A stretch of DNA of 64,000 bases from Nitrospirota bacterium (lineage in GTDB: Bacteria > Nitrospirota > UBA9217): contig CAVWHO010000021.1 in the NCBI GenBank assembly GCA_963754875.1, forward strand, positions 160,001 through 224,000. Direction: 5' to 3'. Under the pieces are notes generated by a model. It did not search any database. It was not told where the DNA came from and was given only the letters and a program-made list of their open reading frames with translations. This document shows, piece by piece, positions 37,174 through 48,097 of this stretch (position 1 is its first letter; every line of letters begins with the position of its first letter). The position numbers and the translations under genes are program-made.

Positions 37174-37729
37174 GTGAATTACCCCGCAGCAGAGCTGCGG
37201 GGCATCCTAAATGCGCTAGAACCTAAAGCCAACTTGCTCATCATGCTGATACCGAATATACTTTCTTATAACTTCTGCCGTTACTTTGTCGCCAACCGAA
37301 CGGACAAAGTAGCCGTCATTCCAGAGTTCTCCTCCCCAAAGTTTTTTCTTTATCTCGGGGAATTCTCGAAACATCATCTTTGCCGATATGCTTTTGATTA
37401 TCTGTACTACCCTCGCTGGAGCATACTTCGGTGGCACAACCAAAAACAAATGCACATGATCATCCATTGCTTCCATCGTATCTATTTCAAATTCATATCG
37501 CTCTGCGATCTCACGAAATATCTCTTTCAGTCTCGTCGTCATTCGATCGCTGAACAGCTTCCTTCGATATTTTGGTATCCATACAAAATGGTACTTCAGA
37601 TCATAGACGCTATGTTTGCTTCTTCTCAATGGGCTCATGGCCCGTATTGTAACAGATTCTCATCCTGACTTCGTCAGGATATCCTTTTCATCCCAGCAGC
37701 AGAGCTGCTGGGTATTTCAGGATGTTTTT
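37174..37729 (-). mobile_element. IS200/IS605-family element, tnpA only, copy 1
   Basis: Subterminal hairpins CCCCGCAGC-AGA-GCTGCGGGG and CCCAGCAGC-AGA-GCTGCTGGG; right end TTCAC; target TTTAT at 37730-37734 (minus). Confidence 0.92.
37216..37638 (-). CDS. tnpA: Y1 HUH transposase
   Basis: YHFVWIPKYRR, DHVHL (HUH), LWNDGYF, KYIRYQ (catalytic Tyr). Confidence 0.97.
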   Translation of the reverse strand: MSPLRRSKHSVYDLKYHFVWIPKYRRKLFSDRMTTRLKEIFREIAERYEFEIDTMEAMDDHVHLFLVVPPKYAPARVVQIIKSISAKMMFREFPEIKKKLWGGELWNDGYFVRSVGDKVTAEVIRKYIRYQHDEQVGFRF

Positions 37730-37920
37730 ATAAAGTGATGTATGCCCATGATCCTGTCCCGATTAATCGGATGACGCCGGTTTATCCTCAATTCAACCAA
37801 ACATACGGCAGCGCCGTCACGAAAAGGACGGTGTGAGCCGCTGCTCCATCTTCCCGGAGTTTGCAGAACTTCAGAGGTCCTGCGAACATCGTTTCCAGGT
37901 CCGCAGCACCTTCCAAGAAG

Positions 37921-39402
37921 CTATTTCCCAACAGTAACGATTTCGCTGGGTGCATAACCCGTCTGGACCGATGGATTGCTCATAAGCGTGAGCGCTCCAG
38001 TCGTCTGGTCGATCGTGTACTGCGAGATGGACGTACCAATGCCCGCGTCATTGTTGCCGCTGGTCGCATAGGCGTACTTGCCCGAGGATTCGATCGCCAT
38101 CCAGGCTACTAATGCCTGCGCTGTCGAGACCGTTCCGTTTGACACGAGCGCTCCGGTCGTCTGGTTAATCGTGAACTGGGCGATAACCCCAGTCGACGAG
38201 GTGAAGATCGGCACATAGGCGAACCTGCCCATGGGGTCAACTGCGATGGATAAAGCATATTGCGCCACCAACGAGACCGTGGCGGGGGTCAGTGGTGAAA
38301 GCATTCCATTTGTGTTGATTTTGTACTGCGAAATGAAGGTGGGATGGACGCCGTCACCATAGTTCGCAACATAGGCATATGTGCCTGAGGGGATCGAGAC
38401 GATCTTGATTTCCCAGGCGTTATAACCCCCCGTCGCCACCGAGGGCGTGGACATTGATGTGAGCACGCCAGTCGTCTGGTTGATCGTGTACTGGGAGACG
38501 GTGTTGGCGGGGCCGTTTGGCACGTAAGCATAATTGCCTGAAGGGTCGATTGCGACAGCGTTGGGACTCGTCCCTGCCGCAACGATGGACGGGGTCATTG
38601 CTGAGAGCGTCCCATCCGTGCCGATCGTGTTCTGACTGACGGTACCCCAAGCACTGTTTGTAACATAGTACCAGGGTTTCGTGGGGTGGACCGCACCGCC
38701 TGCGGGATACGCACCCGCCGTGAAGAACGTAGGCGTGGACAAGGATGTAAGCGACCCGTCCGCACCGATCGCGAACTGAGATATGAAACCACAGCCGTAG
38801 GAACAGCCGGTGATAGGGGTTAGACCATGGTAGTTGCTGACGTACAAATACTTGCCCGAGGGGTCGACCGTGAGGAATCGGGGATCGTACCCTCCTGTAG
38901 AAACCGGGGGCGTGAACATGGGGGTGAGCGCTCCATTCGGGCCGATCGTATACTGAGAGACGTTGCTGTCAGACCAGTTCACAGCGTAGGCATAGCCCCC
39001 TGCCCATAACGCATACATGGTGACATTGGCAGAGCCCATCGAGAAGGCCTTTCCCGGCGTATAGGCCTTGCCGGATCCATCAGCCTTCGTCTGCCATCCC
39101 ACGAAGGTATATCCGGTATATGCGAGGCTTCCCGTATTCGCGGGCACCGTGACAGTCTGCCCGGTCACATAGCTGCTTGAATCAACCGGGACGCTGCCAC
39201 CGGTGGCGCCGTTTGCATTATAGGTCACGGTATAACCGTTGCCACTACTGCTACTGCTACTGCTACTACTACTGCTACTACTACTACTACTACTACTGCT
39301 GCTGCTACTCCCTCCTCCACCACCGCCGCATGTCGCGAATACAATCGTAAATAGAAGAAGCACAAACAATGATATAAACGATGACGTAATGTCCTTTTTC
39401 AT
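37921..39402 (-). CDS. Predicted surface lipoprotein: Gly/Ser linker, InlB B-repeat-like domain, lactonase-type beta-propeller
   Basis: Signal ending FATC-GGGGGG-polySer; YTVTYNANG...GYTFVGW...MYALW; repeated (V/I)DPSG.YAYV...(V/I)SQYTI blades. Confidence 0.82.
   Translation of the reverse strand: MKKDITSSFISLFVLLLFTIVFATCGGGGGGSSSSSSSSSSSSSSSSSSSSSSGNGYTVTYNANGATGGSVPVDSSSYVTGQTVTVPANTGSLAYTGYTFVGWQTKADGSGKAYTPGKAFSMGSANVTMYALWAGGYAYAVNWSDSNVSQYTIGPNGALTPMFTPPVSTGGYDPRFLTVDPSGKYLYVSNYHGLTPITGCSYGCGFISQFAIGADGSLTSLSTPTFFTAGAYPAGGAVHPTKPWYYVTNSAWGTVSQNTIGTDGTLSAMTPSIVAAGTSPNAVAIDPSGNYAYVPNGPANTVSQYTINQTTGVLTSMSTPSVATGGYNAWEIKIVSIPSGTYAYVANYGDGVHPTFISQYKINTNGMLSPLTPATVSLVAQYALSIAVDPMGRFAYVPIFTSSTGVIAQFTINQTTGALVSNGTVSTAQALVAWMAIESSGKYAYATSGNNDAGIGTSISQYTIDQTTGALTLMSNPSVQTGYAPSEIVTVGK
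39245..39327. repeat. Trinucleotide CTR tract plus Gly codons (encodes G6-polySer linker)
   Basis: ctactgctactgctactgctactact... run. Confidence 0.9.
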
Positions 39403-39597
39403 GGTTATTTCCTCCGTCTATTTGATTATACTGATGTTACTTGTCTGCGTTGCTTCTTCTTTTTCCAACTTCTCTTATCTTTGTTGTTCCAACACCTCAT
39501 TTGTCAGCAGTATTATCCGCGAATGCTATGTGCTGATTTGAACAACATCTAATGAACTTCTCAAAGTTAAAAAACTGTTGGTACATCATTTCCTAAA

Positions 39598-40153
39598 GTG
39601 AATTACCCCGCAGCAGAGCTGCGGGGCATCCTAAATGCGCTAGAACCTAAAGCCAACTTGCTCATCATGCTGATACCGAATATACTTTCTTATAACTTCT
39701 GCCGTTACTTTGTCGCCAACCGAACGGACAAAGTAGCCGTCATTCCAGAGTTCTCCTCCCCAAAGTTTTTTCTTTATCTCGGGGAATTCTCGAAACATCA
39801 TCTTTGCCGATATGCTTTTGATTATCTGTACTACCCTCGCTGGAGCATACTTCGGTGGCACAACCAAAAACAAATGCACATGATCATCCATTGCTTCCAT
39901 CGTATCTATTTCAAATTCATATCGCTCTGCGATCTCACGAAATATCTCTTTCAGTCTCGTCGTCATTCGATCGCTGAACAGCTTCCTTCGATATTTTGGT
40001 ATCCATACAAAATGGTACTTCAGATCATAGACGCTATGTTTGCTTCTTCTCAATGGGCTCATGGCCCGTATTGTAACAGATTCTCATCCTGACTTCGTCA
40101 GGATATCCTTTTCATCCCAGCAGCAGAGCTGCTGGGTATTTCAGGATGTTTTT
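39598..40153 (-). mobile_element. IS200/IS605-family element, tnpA only, copy 2
   Basis: Same sequence as copy 1 by eye at offset 2424; different flanks; target TTTAT at 40154-40158 (minus). Confidence 0.92.
39640..40062 (-). CDS. tnpA: Y1 HUH transposase
   Basis: Translation identical to 37216..37638. Confidence 0.97.
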   Translation of the reverse strand: MSPLRRSKHSVYDLKYHFVWIPKYRRKLFSDRMTTRLKEIFREIAERYEFEIDTMEAMDDHVHLFLVVPPKYAPARVVQIIKSISAKMMFREFPEIKKKLWGGELWNDGYFVRSVGDKVTAEVIRKYIRYQHDEQVGFRF

Positions 40154-40190
40154 ATAAAATAGTGGGACGGAATGCCGAAAGAACTTATCC

Positions 40191-40270
40191 TTAGGCAGCT
40201 CGGCCGTCTTGGTCTTTTAAGACCCGTAGCTTTCCGTCCCCCTCTAACAAAGGGTTTGGCTTTATCGTGA
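40191..40270 (-). ncRNA. Cyclic di-GMP-I (GEMM-I) riboswitch
   Basis: Minus strand reads CGATAAAG-CC-AAACCCTTTGTTAGAGGGGGAC-GG-AAAGCTACGGGTCT...AAGACGGCCGAGCTGCC, matching the GEMM-I architecture. Confidence 0.88.
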
Positions 40271-40678
40271 TAGACGATTTATAAAAAAAAATAATGCAAG
40301 ATATGTACGTATTCTGTTATTATATTTTTTTTAAGAAACGAAGGAAAGTCATTCTAAATATTTTACTATTATAGCAAAGAAAGAAAAATTGGGCTTTGGT
40401 ATTTTTTGGGTATTCGCATAAAATAATTATAAGGAGCAAGTTTAACATACAAGAGTACGCAATGCATAATTCTGGATTATCTATTTCGCTTAGAATGCAT
40501 GATCGATTAGATGTTCCTTTAATGCCGCCGAATGGACATATTACGGGGATGAACTGCAGGATTCAGGTTCAGACTTTAAGTGTTTTGGAGAATGGAATCA
40601 TTGACGACTCCAGGATGTATTCATCGGCAGATAATGTTTAGGCTTCTTTCTGCTTGCCTTTTTGCAGAAAGAAGCGAG

Positions 40679-42175
40679 TTGGACTATGCCGCTACGCGCC
40701 TCGCTATGGGATTTCAAACGATTCTTCTTTTTAAATGAGGGTAACGACTACAGTATCGGTTGGGGCATACGACCTGTTACGGGATATGTTCGAGTAAAGA
40801 GCGGTGATTCTGGACGGCGCCGCATGCCCCATTCAGTGGAGGACTATACGGGAATCTGACCTTTTTGACAATAGAAGATCGTTGCGAAGAACAAGGTCGT
40901 TTTCGGGAAGAGATGCAGAGGGCAGTTTTTCGATTCGAGTGATGTTCTCGCTCATGTGCGTGGCGGTCCTTTGCAGCGAGCGGGCAGTATAATCTCCACG
41001 GAGTGCATTCTGCCTTCGCCACATGCAGGGCATTTATTGACGTCGATTCCGGTAAACCGGAGCAAGGCTTCTTGCCACGTTTCGGTCTTTTGTTCCGACT
41101 TGTTCTGATCGGCGCAGGCTCAAAGCTCCCTGCACCGGTCAAGTTTCTTCCTGCGGCACCGGTTGCCCAAAAGGCCGTAATGCCTGATTTTGACGAACCG
41201 GTCAGGAAGGACGTGAAGTAGGAACCCCCGGATGAGCTCATCGGCGTCCACGGTCATGATTTTGCTTTTGTTGTTGTCGGAGTAATCGCGCCACCGGAAG
41301 GAAACCTTGTCGTCCTCCATCTTCACAATTCTGTGGTTGGTGATGCCGGCCTTGGCTTTAGCGTGCTGGAATATCATATGGATCGAGGTAAGCGAAATGT
41401 GTTTGTCCGGCTCCTGCCCTGGAAACAGCCACTGAGAGGGGTGATACTTTTTCCAGTACTGCCTGAGCGCATCGAGTGCGACATTTGACAAGATGGTATA
41501 GCGATCGCGGCCTCCCTTGCCTTGCCGGACGTGTATCAGCATACGTTTGCTGTCGATATCGGCAAGGGTGAGATTCGCGGTCTCGCTTATCCTGAGCCCG
41601 GCGGAGTAGGTCAATATCAGGACAGCTTTGTGCTTCAGGTTCTCGGTGACCTCGAAGAGTTTAAGTACCTCTTCAAGGTCAAGAACGACGGGAAGCTTCT
41701 CTTTCTGCTTGGGATAGGGAATCTTTTCGACCACCCAGCCGCGCTTCAGGGTAATCATATATAGGAAGCGTAAGGCACTGTAATAGATCCGGAGGGTTGA
41801 AAGAGCAATCTTCCGCACTTTCACGGCATGGTGCAAGTACTCCTTAACTTCCTTGGTACCGAGTTGTTCCGGCGGTTTCTTGTAGAGCTTCACAAAATTA
41901 CGGACTTCTCGAAGATATGCCTTTTGTGTCGTTCTACTGAGTCCCCGGAGCTCCATGTCTGCCAACATTTGATCGCGCAACTTTCCCAGGATTGAATCTC
42001 CTTCCGTGTGTCGGATTATCCTGCAGCATGACGCCGATGGTGATACGGAAAGAGATTTTACAGGGGAGAGGTATATTGATCAAGCGTGGGTATTGACGAC
42101 GAGAATACGCAAGGCGAAGGATTTTTCAGCCGTTGTGCCTTGGGGTGTTGGCCACCGCGTAGCGGTTTAGTCCAA
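40679..42175 (-). mobile_element. Internally deleted IS91-like element of the tyrosine-recombinase-carrying type
   Basis: 20-bp inverted ends with 18/20 match (ttggactatgccgctacgcg / cgcgtagcggtttagtccaa) around integrase and transposase remnants. Confidence 0.75.
40952..41989 (-). pseudogene. Tyrosine recombinase N-part fused in frame to IS91-family transposase C-part
   Basis: SAM-like N-domain, YSAGLRISE, QGKGGRDR, then NHRIV...SFRWRDY...FLLHVLPDRFVKIRHYGLL; TGA at 41120, then CPAC tail in frame; CTG at the expected start. Confidence 0.85.
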
Positions 42176-42514: not shown

Positions 42515-42802
42515 TTACGCCGTTTTTTTTGCTTTGAGAGTAATAACAAGCTCTGCATCGAGAGCTTGCGCGATCTTTTTTAGCGTTGACAGGCGGGGCA
42601 GTCCATGAGTTAGTCCCTCAATGCGCGCAACAGAAGATTGAGGCATGCCCGTCTTTTTCGCCACATCGAGTTGAGTCATCTTTTTCCTGAGCCGTTGCTC
42701 CATTATACTCCGAGCTAGCTCGTACTCAGGCTGAAGCTTTTCGTACTCCGTCTTGACAGCTTTGTTTTTCAATAGCTCTTTTCTGTGTTCTTTGTAATTC
42801 AT
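42515..42802 (-). CDS. XRE-family HTH antitoxin (HigA-like)
   Basis: MTQLDVAKKTGMPQSSVARIE; directly downstream of the toxin. Confidence 0.88.
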   Translation of the reverse strand: MNYKEHRKELLKNKAVKTEYEKLQPEYELARSIMEQRLRKKMTQLDVAKKTGMPQSSVARIEGLTHGLPRLSTLKKIAQALDAELVITLKAKKTA

Positions 42803-42848
42803 ATTTATAATCCTTTTCTAGCCAAATAATTCTTCATTCTGGCTTCTG

Positions 42849-43928
42849 CTAGTGTAGTGCGTCCAACGCTTCTTTACTTTTGGCGACCTTGGACAAAATC
42901 TGTTCCACAGGTGCAGTCCATACAAACACCTGCGGATTTTGGTTGTGATTATCGATATAGTTTTTGATAGCATCGATTAATGCTGGCACGTTCCGAAACG
43001 TGCCACGACGTATCCGCTTGTCGGTAATTTCTCGGAACCACCGCTCGACCATGTTCAGCCAAGAGCTCGAGGTCGGGATAAAGTGCAAATGGAACCGTGG
43101 ATGCCGCTTGAGCCAGGTTTTTACGCTGGGATGCTTGTGGGTCCCGTAATTGTCTACGATCAAGTGCAGGTCGAGACCGATCGGGGTCTCTCCATCTATT
43201 TTCTTGAGGAAGCGGATAAATTCTTGATGCCGATGGCGCGGCAGGCAGTCGCCGATAATCGTACCGTCGAGCATGCTGAGGGCTGCAAATAATGTTGTTG
43301 TGCCGTTTCGTTTGTAATCGTGCGTCATGGTCCCACAACGGCCCTTTTTCAACGGCAACCCCGGCTGCGTCCGGTCGAGTGCTTGGATTTGACTCTTCTC
43401 GTCGACACAGAGCACGAGGGACTTGTCCGGAGGATTGAGATAGAGCCCAACAACGTCGTACAGTTTCTCGACGAAGTTTTTGTCGCGGCTGACCTTGAAG
43501 GTTTTGATCAAATGAGGCTTTAAGTCGTGTTGCTTCCATATACGGCGTATTGTGGCTTCGCTTAACCCTTGAGCCTTGGCCATGCTGCGAGTGCTCCAAT
43601 GGGTTGCATTGGGTGGAGTGGTATGGAGGGTGGCTTCGATGACTGCTTGAACCTTCTTCACCGGTATTTTGGGGATACGACCAGGACGGGGTGCATCCTT
43701 TTCCAGTCCCTCCAGTCGAAAAGCCAGAAACCGCTGTCGCCAAAGCTGCACGGTTGGCCGGGAGACACCAAGCTCCTGTGCAATATCTTGGTTCTGTACT
43801 CCATCCACAGCCATTCGGATGATCAGTGCACGTTGTACAAGTCGCAAGGGAAAGCTTTTTCCACGAACCCAGACGTCCAATTTGGATTGTTCCTCAGGAG
43901 ACAAAATAATGGGCGCTGCGCTTTTCAT
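42849..43928 (-). CDS. IS630 transposase
   Basis: HTH, CVDEKSQIQAL, HDYKRNGTT, DNYGTHK, SSWLNMVERWF. Confidence 0.96.
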   Translation of the reverse strand: MKSAAPIILSPEEQSKLDVWVRGKSFPLRLVQRALIIRMAVDGVQNQDIAQELGVSRPTVQLWRQRFLAFRLEGLEKDAPRPGRIPKIPVKKVQAVIEATLHTTPPNATHWSTRSMAKAQGLSEATIRRIWKQHDLKPHLIKTFKVSRDKNFVEKLYDVVGLYLNPPDKSLVLCVDEKSQIQALDRTQPGLPLKKGRCGTMTHDYKRNGTTTLFAALSMLDGTIIGDCLPRHRHQEFIRFLKKIDGETPIGLDLHLIVDNYGTHKHPSVKTWLKRHPRFHLHFIPTSSSWLNMVERWFREITDKRIRRGTFRNVPALIDAIKNYIDNHNQNPQVFVWTAPVEQILSKVAKSKEALDALH

Positions 43929-43986
43929 GATGGCTTAGCATACAGAGTTCCATATCATAAGTCAAGTTATTTATGACGCAGTACAC
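42852..43986 (-). mobile_element. IS630-family insertion sequence
   Basis: Ends GTGTAGTGCGTC / GACGCAGTACAC flanked by duplicated TA within CTAG. Confidence 0.93.
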
Positions 43987-44308
43987 TAGCTCTATCTCTC
44001 GCGGAGGCGTTTTGTCGGTCTTTTTTGTGAACCCGTGCAAAAGAACTAATTTCCGACCGGTAAAGGCAAAGTAGAACACTCGATGAATGTTTTGCCGGTC
44101 CTTAATCCTCATCTCAAAAAGCTTCCGCGATCCGGTTATTGGTTTAACGTATGGTTCTCTAACGTTCAGACCATATTATGTGAGCAAATCAGCTATAAAA
44201 ATGAATTTCGCTTTGCTTTCTGCAGAAAGAGAGTCGATAAAATCTCTAGCCGGCGATTTGCCATTTTCGGCCACGTAGTATTCTATCGACCACTGCATGC
44301 ACTTAGTA

Positions 44309-48022: not shown

Positions 48023-48097
48023 TGGAGCCGGCGATCCGGGTTGAACGGACGACCTGCTGATTACGAATCAGCTGCTCTACCACTGAGCTACGCCGGC
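48023..48097 (-). tRNA. tRNA-Thr(CGT)
   Basis: GCCGGCG TAGCTCAGTGGTAGAGC A GCTGA TTCGTAA TCAGC AGGTC GTCCG TTCAACC CGGAT CGCCGGC T CCA. Confidence 0.96.

Follow-up and report, generated by a model that had tools for sequence, protein, structure and literature searches.

The region analysed here, called the window throughout, is a stretch of 64,000 nucleotides from a Nitrospirota genome (assembly GCA_963754875.1, contig CAVWHO010000021.1). On its minus strand, a c-di-GMP riboswitch aptamer is followed by an insertion sequence (IS) of the IS200/IS605 family and then by the gene of a predicted lipoprotein (Table 1). An earlier note on this DNA had placed tnpA and then the lipoprotein gene behind the riboswitch, and this order was confirmed by Pfam matches (PF01797 for the former, PF09479 and PF10282 for the latter).

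Table 1. Features of the riboswitch, IS and lipoprotein gene locus, in window coordinates
Feature	Position	Strand	Basis
Candidate extended -10 box of riboswitch leader, predicted	40368..40376	-	TG-n-TATAAT; TG-n-TACAAT at the aligned place in IS-free L030
c-di-GMP-I (GEMM-I) aptamer	40190..40270	-	Rfam covariance models and model alignment
Native first part of expression platform	40172..40189	-	Collinear with L077; near-match to a stretch of L043; last 7 nt also at the C17 flank (microhomology)
12 nt from flank of IS copy G000:C17:95127, in place of terminator 3' arm	40160..40171	-	Flank identity and orthologues
IS target TTTAT (left cleavage site), part of former terminator T-tail	40154..40158	-	Precedes 17/17 IS and miniature copies in the genome
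IS200/IS605-family element, 556 nt, tnpA only	39598..40153	-	Ends by target, right end TCAC and identity to other copies
Left-end hairpins	40137-40115 and 40104-40086	-	Inside the IS
Conserved extended -10 box, predicted own promoter of tnpA, leaderless mRNA	40070..40078	-	TG-n-TACAAT, 7 nt before ATG
tnpA, 140-aa Y1 HUH transposase, intact	39640..40062	-	PF01797, 155 bits, E 1e-45, full model
Right-end hairpin	39628-39604	-	Inside the IS
Remaining original leader: old T-tail, about 195 nt, GGAGG ribosome site	39403..39597	-	IS-free L077 alignable over some 55 nt beyond the junction
Predicted lipoprotein, 493 aa: signal with Cys, Ser-rich linker, Listeria-Bacteroides repeat, lactonase-like beta-propeller	37921..39402	-	PF09479 and PF10282
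Second IS copy, identical, same orientation	37174..37729	-	Sequence identity

The two identical IS copies bracket the lipoprotein gene in direct orientation (37174-40153); their outer ends could move the gene as a 2,980-nt unit, and recombination could delete it. On a larger scale, the riboswitch, the lipoprotein gene and several mobile remnants lie in an 11-kb island between a tRNA (anticodon CGT, Thr) at 48097-48026 (about 48023-48097) and a segment at 37108-37054 that repeats its 3' part at 85%, an arrangement that would be read as the usual mark of an integrated island. Within it, an IS630-type DDE transposase stands between an HTH antitoxin-like gene and a Gp49/RelE-like one (42515-44112), and a single open reading frame at 41120-41980, probably a deletion remnant, joins part of a tyrosine integrase to the end of a Y2 (IS91-like) transposase.

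Scanning with Rfam covariance models bore out the GEMM-I aptamer that the earlier note had placed at 40270-40191 on the minus strand. RF01051 matched these positions with 66.6 bits (cut-off 35) and RF03167 matched 40269-40190 with 66.9 bits (cut-off 59); RF01051 matched seven times in the whole genome, the window aptamer included. In the model alignment the ligand positions are occupied by G 40260, A 40233 and C 40195, the equivalents of G20, A47 and C92 of Vc2, and this G/A/C combination, as aligned, is the c-di-GMP set rather than that of cGAMP. G20 and C92 of the c-di-GMP-I riboswitch have been described as ligand positions in PMC6140456. Three features that homologous riboswitches conserve were found altered: the tetraloop is GUUA, whereas 27 of 31 homologues carry GNRA; its closing pair is U-G, where 30 of 31 have C-G; and one P1 pair is broken by a C-U mismatch at 40193, the P1 base being intact in 30 of 31. 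For Vc2, the contact of the GNRA loop with another helix and the formation of P1 are treated as part of the folded, bound state in PMC11705072. From the loop, the closing pair and the P1 mismatch we infer that aptamer function would be reduced; these changes weaken the claim of function, not the claim of descent, and ligand binding may survive, the contact bases being intact. Two other riboswitches met in the survey differ in arrangement. In L042 (G029:C53:17497-18171), three c-di-GMP-I riboswitches stand in tandem at intervals of about 290 nt, and each has a terminator of its own. L009, in the genome of the window (G000:C8:410217-410295), has G-G-G after the first bulge and stands, with no terminator, just before a cytochrome-like gene containing CxxCH; it perhaps acts on translation, with c-di-GMP or cGAMP as its putative ligand.

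The earlier note was also right about both ends of the IS, its TTTAT target and its identity with the second copy in the window. The genome carries 13 full copies (12 identical at 556 nt and one of 540 nt) together with four miniature derivatives, and every one of the 17 is preceded by TTTAT and followed by T. The base after the right end was likewise T at 13 of 13 sites in relatives (the copies compared are those of G000, the genome of the window, and of G001, G002, G011 and G019), so target choice reaches one base past the cut. In IS200/IS605 elements, guide sequences pair with the cleavage sites; here the right guide and the right end co-vary, GATG occurring with TCAC (the window and three copies of relatives) and AATG with TTAC (10 copies), and the right end was therefore placed at TCAC. 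The identity of 12 copies suggests recent movement or homogenisation. The miniature non-coding derivatives, about 150 nt long with the same ends and target, lie on C14, C16 (two) and C20 of this genome, and 23 pattern matches to such derivatives were obtained in G002.

One further copy matters for what follows. The copy on C17 (G000:C17:94557-95140; L049:1047-1650) interrupts a gene for a PAS-domain sensor kinase/response regulator of about 1,015 aa after the fourth codon; the remaining frame is open, and an in-frame GTG could restart it. The C17 reading frame and the length of its orthologues fit only an insertion at TTTAT^T without target duplication.

The IS stands in a T-rich run behind the riboswitch, as the earlier note had it: the TTTAT is part of the T-tail of a former terminator, and we take the presence of the TTTAT^T target in this tail as the reason for the insertion. 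The genome contains 2,631 TTTATT sites, and the chance that 17 random insertions strike one given site is about 0.6%. Hairpins were not enriched at the 17 IS sites compared with the other TTTATT sites of the genome (p 0.58); local GC skew on the IS top strand was positive at 13 of the 17, a weak strand bias.

To see what the expression platform had been, the window was compared with 32 homologous riboswitches, which were chosen by pattern from relatives' loci, include four loci of the same genome and are not independent samples. In 30 of them, the arm before the U-run pairs with the last stem of the aptamer, the exceptions being L043, whose arm is degenerate, and L004. The window keeps 18 nt of the platform and then has, at the place of the arm, 12 nt that belong to another locus (C17). 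The terminator stretch folds at -14.3 kcal/mol in the window versus -19.1 to -31.7 kcal/mol in 31 of the 32 homologues, L004 folding as weakly as the window. A counterpart of the empty site is L077, which is collinear across TTTTAT^TTTAG, has a normal arm, and stays alignable over about 55 nt of the leader beyond the junction. A terminator hairpin beside the U-run that excludes the ligand-bound form was not found in the window, the arm having been replaced. The earlier note had pointed to a 13-mer after the aptamer that is complementary to it. This 13-mer was confirmed: a perfect pairing joins its last 9 nt to 40240-40232, and the 3' end of the aptamer pairs with its first bases (fold z = -3.5). 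As a native platform it does not hold up, because its distal 12 nt derive from another gene and replace the conserved terminator arm; judged by the flank comparison below, the complementary segment is not native to the riboswitch locus.

The source of the 12 nt was located by comparing the flanks of all IS copies. The 20 nt to the left of the IS target recur unchanged in the left flank of the copy at C17:95127, whereas the longest flank shared in any other of the 136 pairs of IS copies is 5 nt. On the C17 side, the shared bases, read on the opposite strand, are the I-V-G-R-N codons of the N terminus of the PAS kinase. Three orthologues of this kinase without an IS (P0004, P0006 and P0007; the first two 88% and 81% identical to it over the full length) have Arg at an equal distance of 10 residues from Met and keep R-N-x-D; the shared bases are therefore native to C17, and a transfer from C21 to C17 is ruled out by these orthologues. 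Paralogues of the C17 gene in 64 genomes have N termini too divergent to settle the direction of transfer. Movement of the flank by TnpA cutting elsewhere was also rejected, since a TTTAT-like site precedes the 20 shared nt at neither end.

Since the 12 nt now stand at both loci, the exchange was one-way; its limits are the IS at one end and, at the other, a microhomology of up to 7 shared nt. We regard the 12 nt as acquired by a non-reciprocal exchange between IS copies, which would be gene conversion with somewhat better than even odds; an assembly or polishing error is a serious candidate too, with odds a little short of even. A repeat in 12 identical copies is just where consensus polishing is known to go wrong. 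Among the extensions listed for the other repeat families of the assembly, which were short or imperfect, none was a comparable flank extension of 10-40 nt, and this leans slightly to a real event. If real, the 12-nt flank shift is a clean footprint of conversion running from an IS into adjacent DNA; if an error, it warns that bases beside a multi-copy IS in metagenome assemblies can be swapped.

Next, the claim that the ancestral unit led from the riboswitch to a surface protein was examined in relatives. IS-free loci with the riboswitch directly before a lipoprotein gene of the same family were found four times above the Rfam cut-off (L030, L032, L199 and L200) and once below it (L031). The upstream region of L030 is 82% alike, its candidate extended -10 box included. 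Loci of the closest protein homologues (L201-L204) had no Rfam match nearby, and none was obtained at 11 loci of metagenome homologues, several of which have short upstream DNA. The first open reading frame fits the lipoprotein pattern behind only 6 of the 32 riboswitches. Lipoprotein homologues were beside none of 36 riboswitches in a first test, and in a rerun with 55 loci they occurred only in loci fetched for DNA similarity, so the link between riboswitch and lipoprotein is not general. The IS-free arrangements of relatives support a riboswitch-to-lipoprotein unit as the ancestral state of this locus, as claimed.

By the earlier note, a promoter of the lipoprotein gene's own between 39403 and 39597 would have counted against the proposal; the search for sigma-70 promoters returned 0 promoter-like sites there, with 0.7 expected. 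A second RNA motif in the same interval was not detected either, by Rfam or as a good homologue in 63 genomes. A short similar stretch occurs 40-60 nt behind the terminator in L043, L032, L077 and the window (about 39550-39480), with no Rfam or significant homologue match, and the leader in the window can fold into a long hairpin. The right-end hairpin of the IS and the old T-tail behind it are called terminator-like on the transcribed strand, and a polar effect of the IS on the lipoprotein gene is likely from this arrangement. Of the two outcomes foreseen in the earlier note, silencing of the lipoprotein gene is thus plausible, given this hairpin and the lack of a detectable promoter, whereas control of the transposase by c-di-GMP is not supported.

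The evidence on the second outcome comes from tnpA itself. TG-n-TACAAT recurs at the exact 7-nt spacing before the start codon in 12 of 13 related IS copies (four genomes), and tnpA has no well-spaced Shine-Dalgarno sequence. These features point to an own promoter and a leaderless message for tnpA, a kind of message that, going by established knowledge, read-through would not supply, and read-through is therefore likely to yield little transposase. The conserved, apparently leaderless start, together with the conserved features that the aptamer has lost, argues against c-di-GMP control of the transposase. In the literature searched, no report of a leaderless IS200 tnpA was found.

Taken together, we propose, with a probability of roughly 70%, that a multi-copy IS200-type element sits in the T-tail of a riboswitch terminator, that 12 nt from beside another copy replace the terminator arm, and that the switch has likely ceased to work, with the lipoprotein gene likely separated from its promoter. 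The aptamer, the IS ends, the target, the copy number, the foreign 12 nt and the loss of the conserved arm are its observed parts. In the ancestral leader, presumably an ON switch, bound c-di-GMP would have held the last stem of the aptamer and blocked terminator formation. The IS would have entered the T-tail at TTTAT^T, and a one-way exchange between IS copies would have put the 12 nt in the place of the terminator arm. Transcripts from the upstream promoter would now run into the IS largely irrespective of ligand. They would yield little transposase, tnpA being built for its own leaderless start, and the right-end hairpin would stop part of them, which leaves the lipoprotein either unmade or made without regulation at a low level. 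This is most likely ordinary insertional damage, neither a newly wired transposase nor a reversible switch, and as such it is of little consequence, an IS in a T-rich terminator tail that damages a leader being common. TTTATT occurs, however, in the tails of 16 of the 32 homologous riboswitches. With half of the tails carrying the exact target, IS strikes on such tails are to be expected across many genomes, and such predictable insertions would serve as natural tests of IS polarity.

A different picture follows should the 12 nt be an assembly error: the true terminator and most of the U-run would stand intact before the IS, read-through would still be under c-di-GMP control, for the IS and, to a weak degree, for the lipoprotein gene, and precise excision would restore the switch. 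The TTTTAT of the tail does remain upstream of the IS, the ligand-contact bases are intact, and the 12 identical copies are prone to polishing errors; ligand-dependent read-through into the IS is then possible. Such an account needs a working aptamer in addition to the error, yet the three conserved features are altered; other repeat families show no such flank extension, and tnpA would lack a well-spaced Shine-Dalgarno sequence even given read-through. We consider it unlikely. More improbable still is that the imported bases form a new working platform, which in the ligand-free state pairs with the aptamer core (40240-40232) and lets c-di-GMP switch read-through into tnpA and the lipoprotein gene, and that they were kept by selection or helped by pairing. 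A perfect 9-nt match was given by only 215 of 200,000 genomic 12-mers placed at the same spot (0.1%), 12 of 14 positions match the aptamer in an extended register, and the minimum-energy fold with the imported bases sequesters the aptamer core. The stem so formed is, however, a three-way junction that ends 4 nt before the U-run, leaving no hairpin beside it, and a stem of this kind ending short of the U-run is a poor terminator by established rules. The energy of the whole fold is ordinary, being matched by 6% of 3,000 genomic 12-mers. Of 401 genomes searched by pattern, a further 14 matched, a number close to that of the reversed control, and Rfam on one of these hits (L130) gave no match. 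We treat the 9-nt match as a coincidence noticed post hoc and offer no other explanation. Were the new platform real, at the low odds that we give it, multi-copy IS200 elements would be editors of adjacent DNA, able to rewire an RNA switch.

The earlier note further suggested that the IS could work as a reversible ON/OFF switch. Taken as a programme, this would be phase variation of the surface lipoprotein by excision and re-insertion. Excision of IS200/IS605 elements is precise, the affected gene does encode a surface lipoprotein, and the C17 reading frame speaks for insertion without target duplication. According to PMC6006769, these elements move by excision of a single-stranded circle. Against this, the 17 insertions are scattered over a genome with 2,631 targets and show no preference for the riboswitch site, and a precise excision would, on the sequence as assembled, produce a leader whose terminator arm is still missing. 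Because excision would not bring the arm back, the idea fails on the assembled sequence; only an assembly error in the 12 nt would let part of it stand. Recurrence was not found in five relatives or in a pattern scan of the genome collection. The former held 53 aptamer matches against 27 left-end and 15 tnpA matches, the nearest 2.8 kb apart by their coordinates; at 14 of the 15 loci, those that were scanned, no riboswitch lay within 1.5 kb of tnpA; and the scan, whose pattern covers only this IS subfamily, gave five matches, none of them an Rfam match. Reads of this strain were not found: no run scanned for the empty allele contained half of the query words (0.32 in the best run), the contigs of four runs showed no 40154-39597 joint, and four runs scanned for the C17 locus did not reach over its flanks. 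These outcomes carry no weight either way. A paper on an IS200 behind a c-di-GMP riboswitch was not found in the literature searched, a search that left most subscription journals outside. A programmed switch is the account that we hold least probable, and insertional damage remains the preferred reading of the locus.

Compared with known systems, the aptamer resembles the c-di-GMP-I (GEMM-I) class (RF01051; Vibrio cholerae Vc2) in its model score well above the cut-off, in the equivalents of G20 and C92 and in the surface protein gene downstream, and differs from it in the GUUA in place of GNRA, the broken P1 pair and the absence of the terminator arm of relatives. The c-di-GMP-I-GGC variant (RF03167) gave the highest Rfam score; its name presumably denotes the bases at the three ligand positions, and the window has A at 40233, the A47 equivalent, where the model consensus has G. 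Terminators upstream of IS200/IS605 elements are a published trend (PMC13548323), although the main text of that paper leaves riboswitches unmentioned, and the 17 sites of this genome show no enrichment of hairpins. The element itself is a tnpA-only member of the IS200 group that shares with IS608 and ISDra2, whose mechanism is set out in PMC6006769, the Y1 HUH TnpA, the subterminal hairpins with a guide tetranucleotide 5' of each, a fixed target left of the element and the absence of target duplication; unlike that family, its target here always has a T after it. IS200 of Salmonella, as described in PMC4513863, has a long structured leader, a hidden Shine-Dalgarno sequence and a bidirectional terminator at the left end, whereas tnpA of the present element is apparently leaderless. 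In the present element, the left-end terminator call falls on the antisense strand only, and the hairpins have T tails only there; entry of transcripts into tnpA is therefore probably possible, in contrast to Salmonella IS200, whose terminator acts in both directions.
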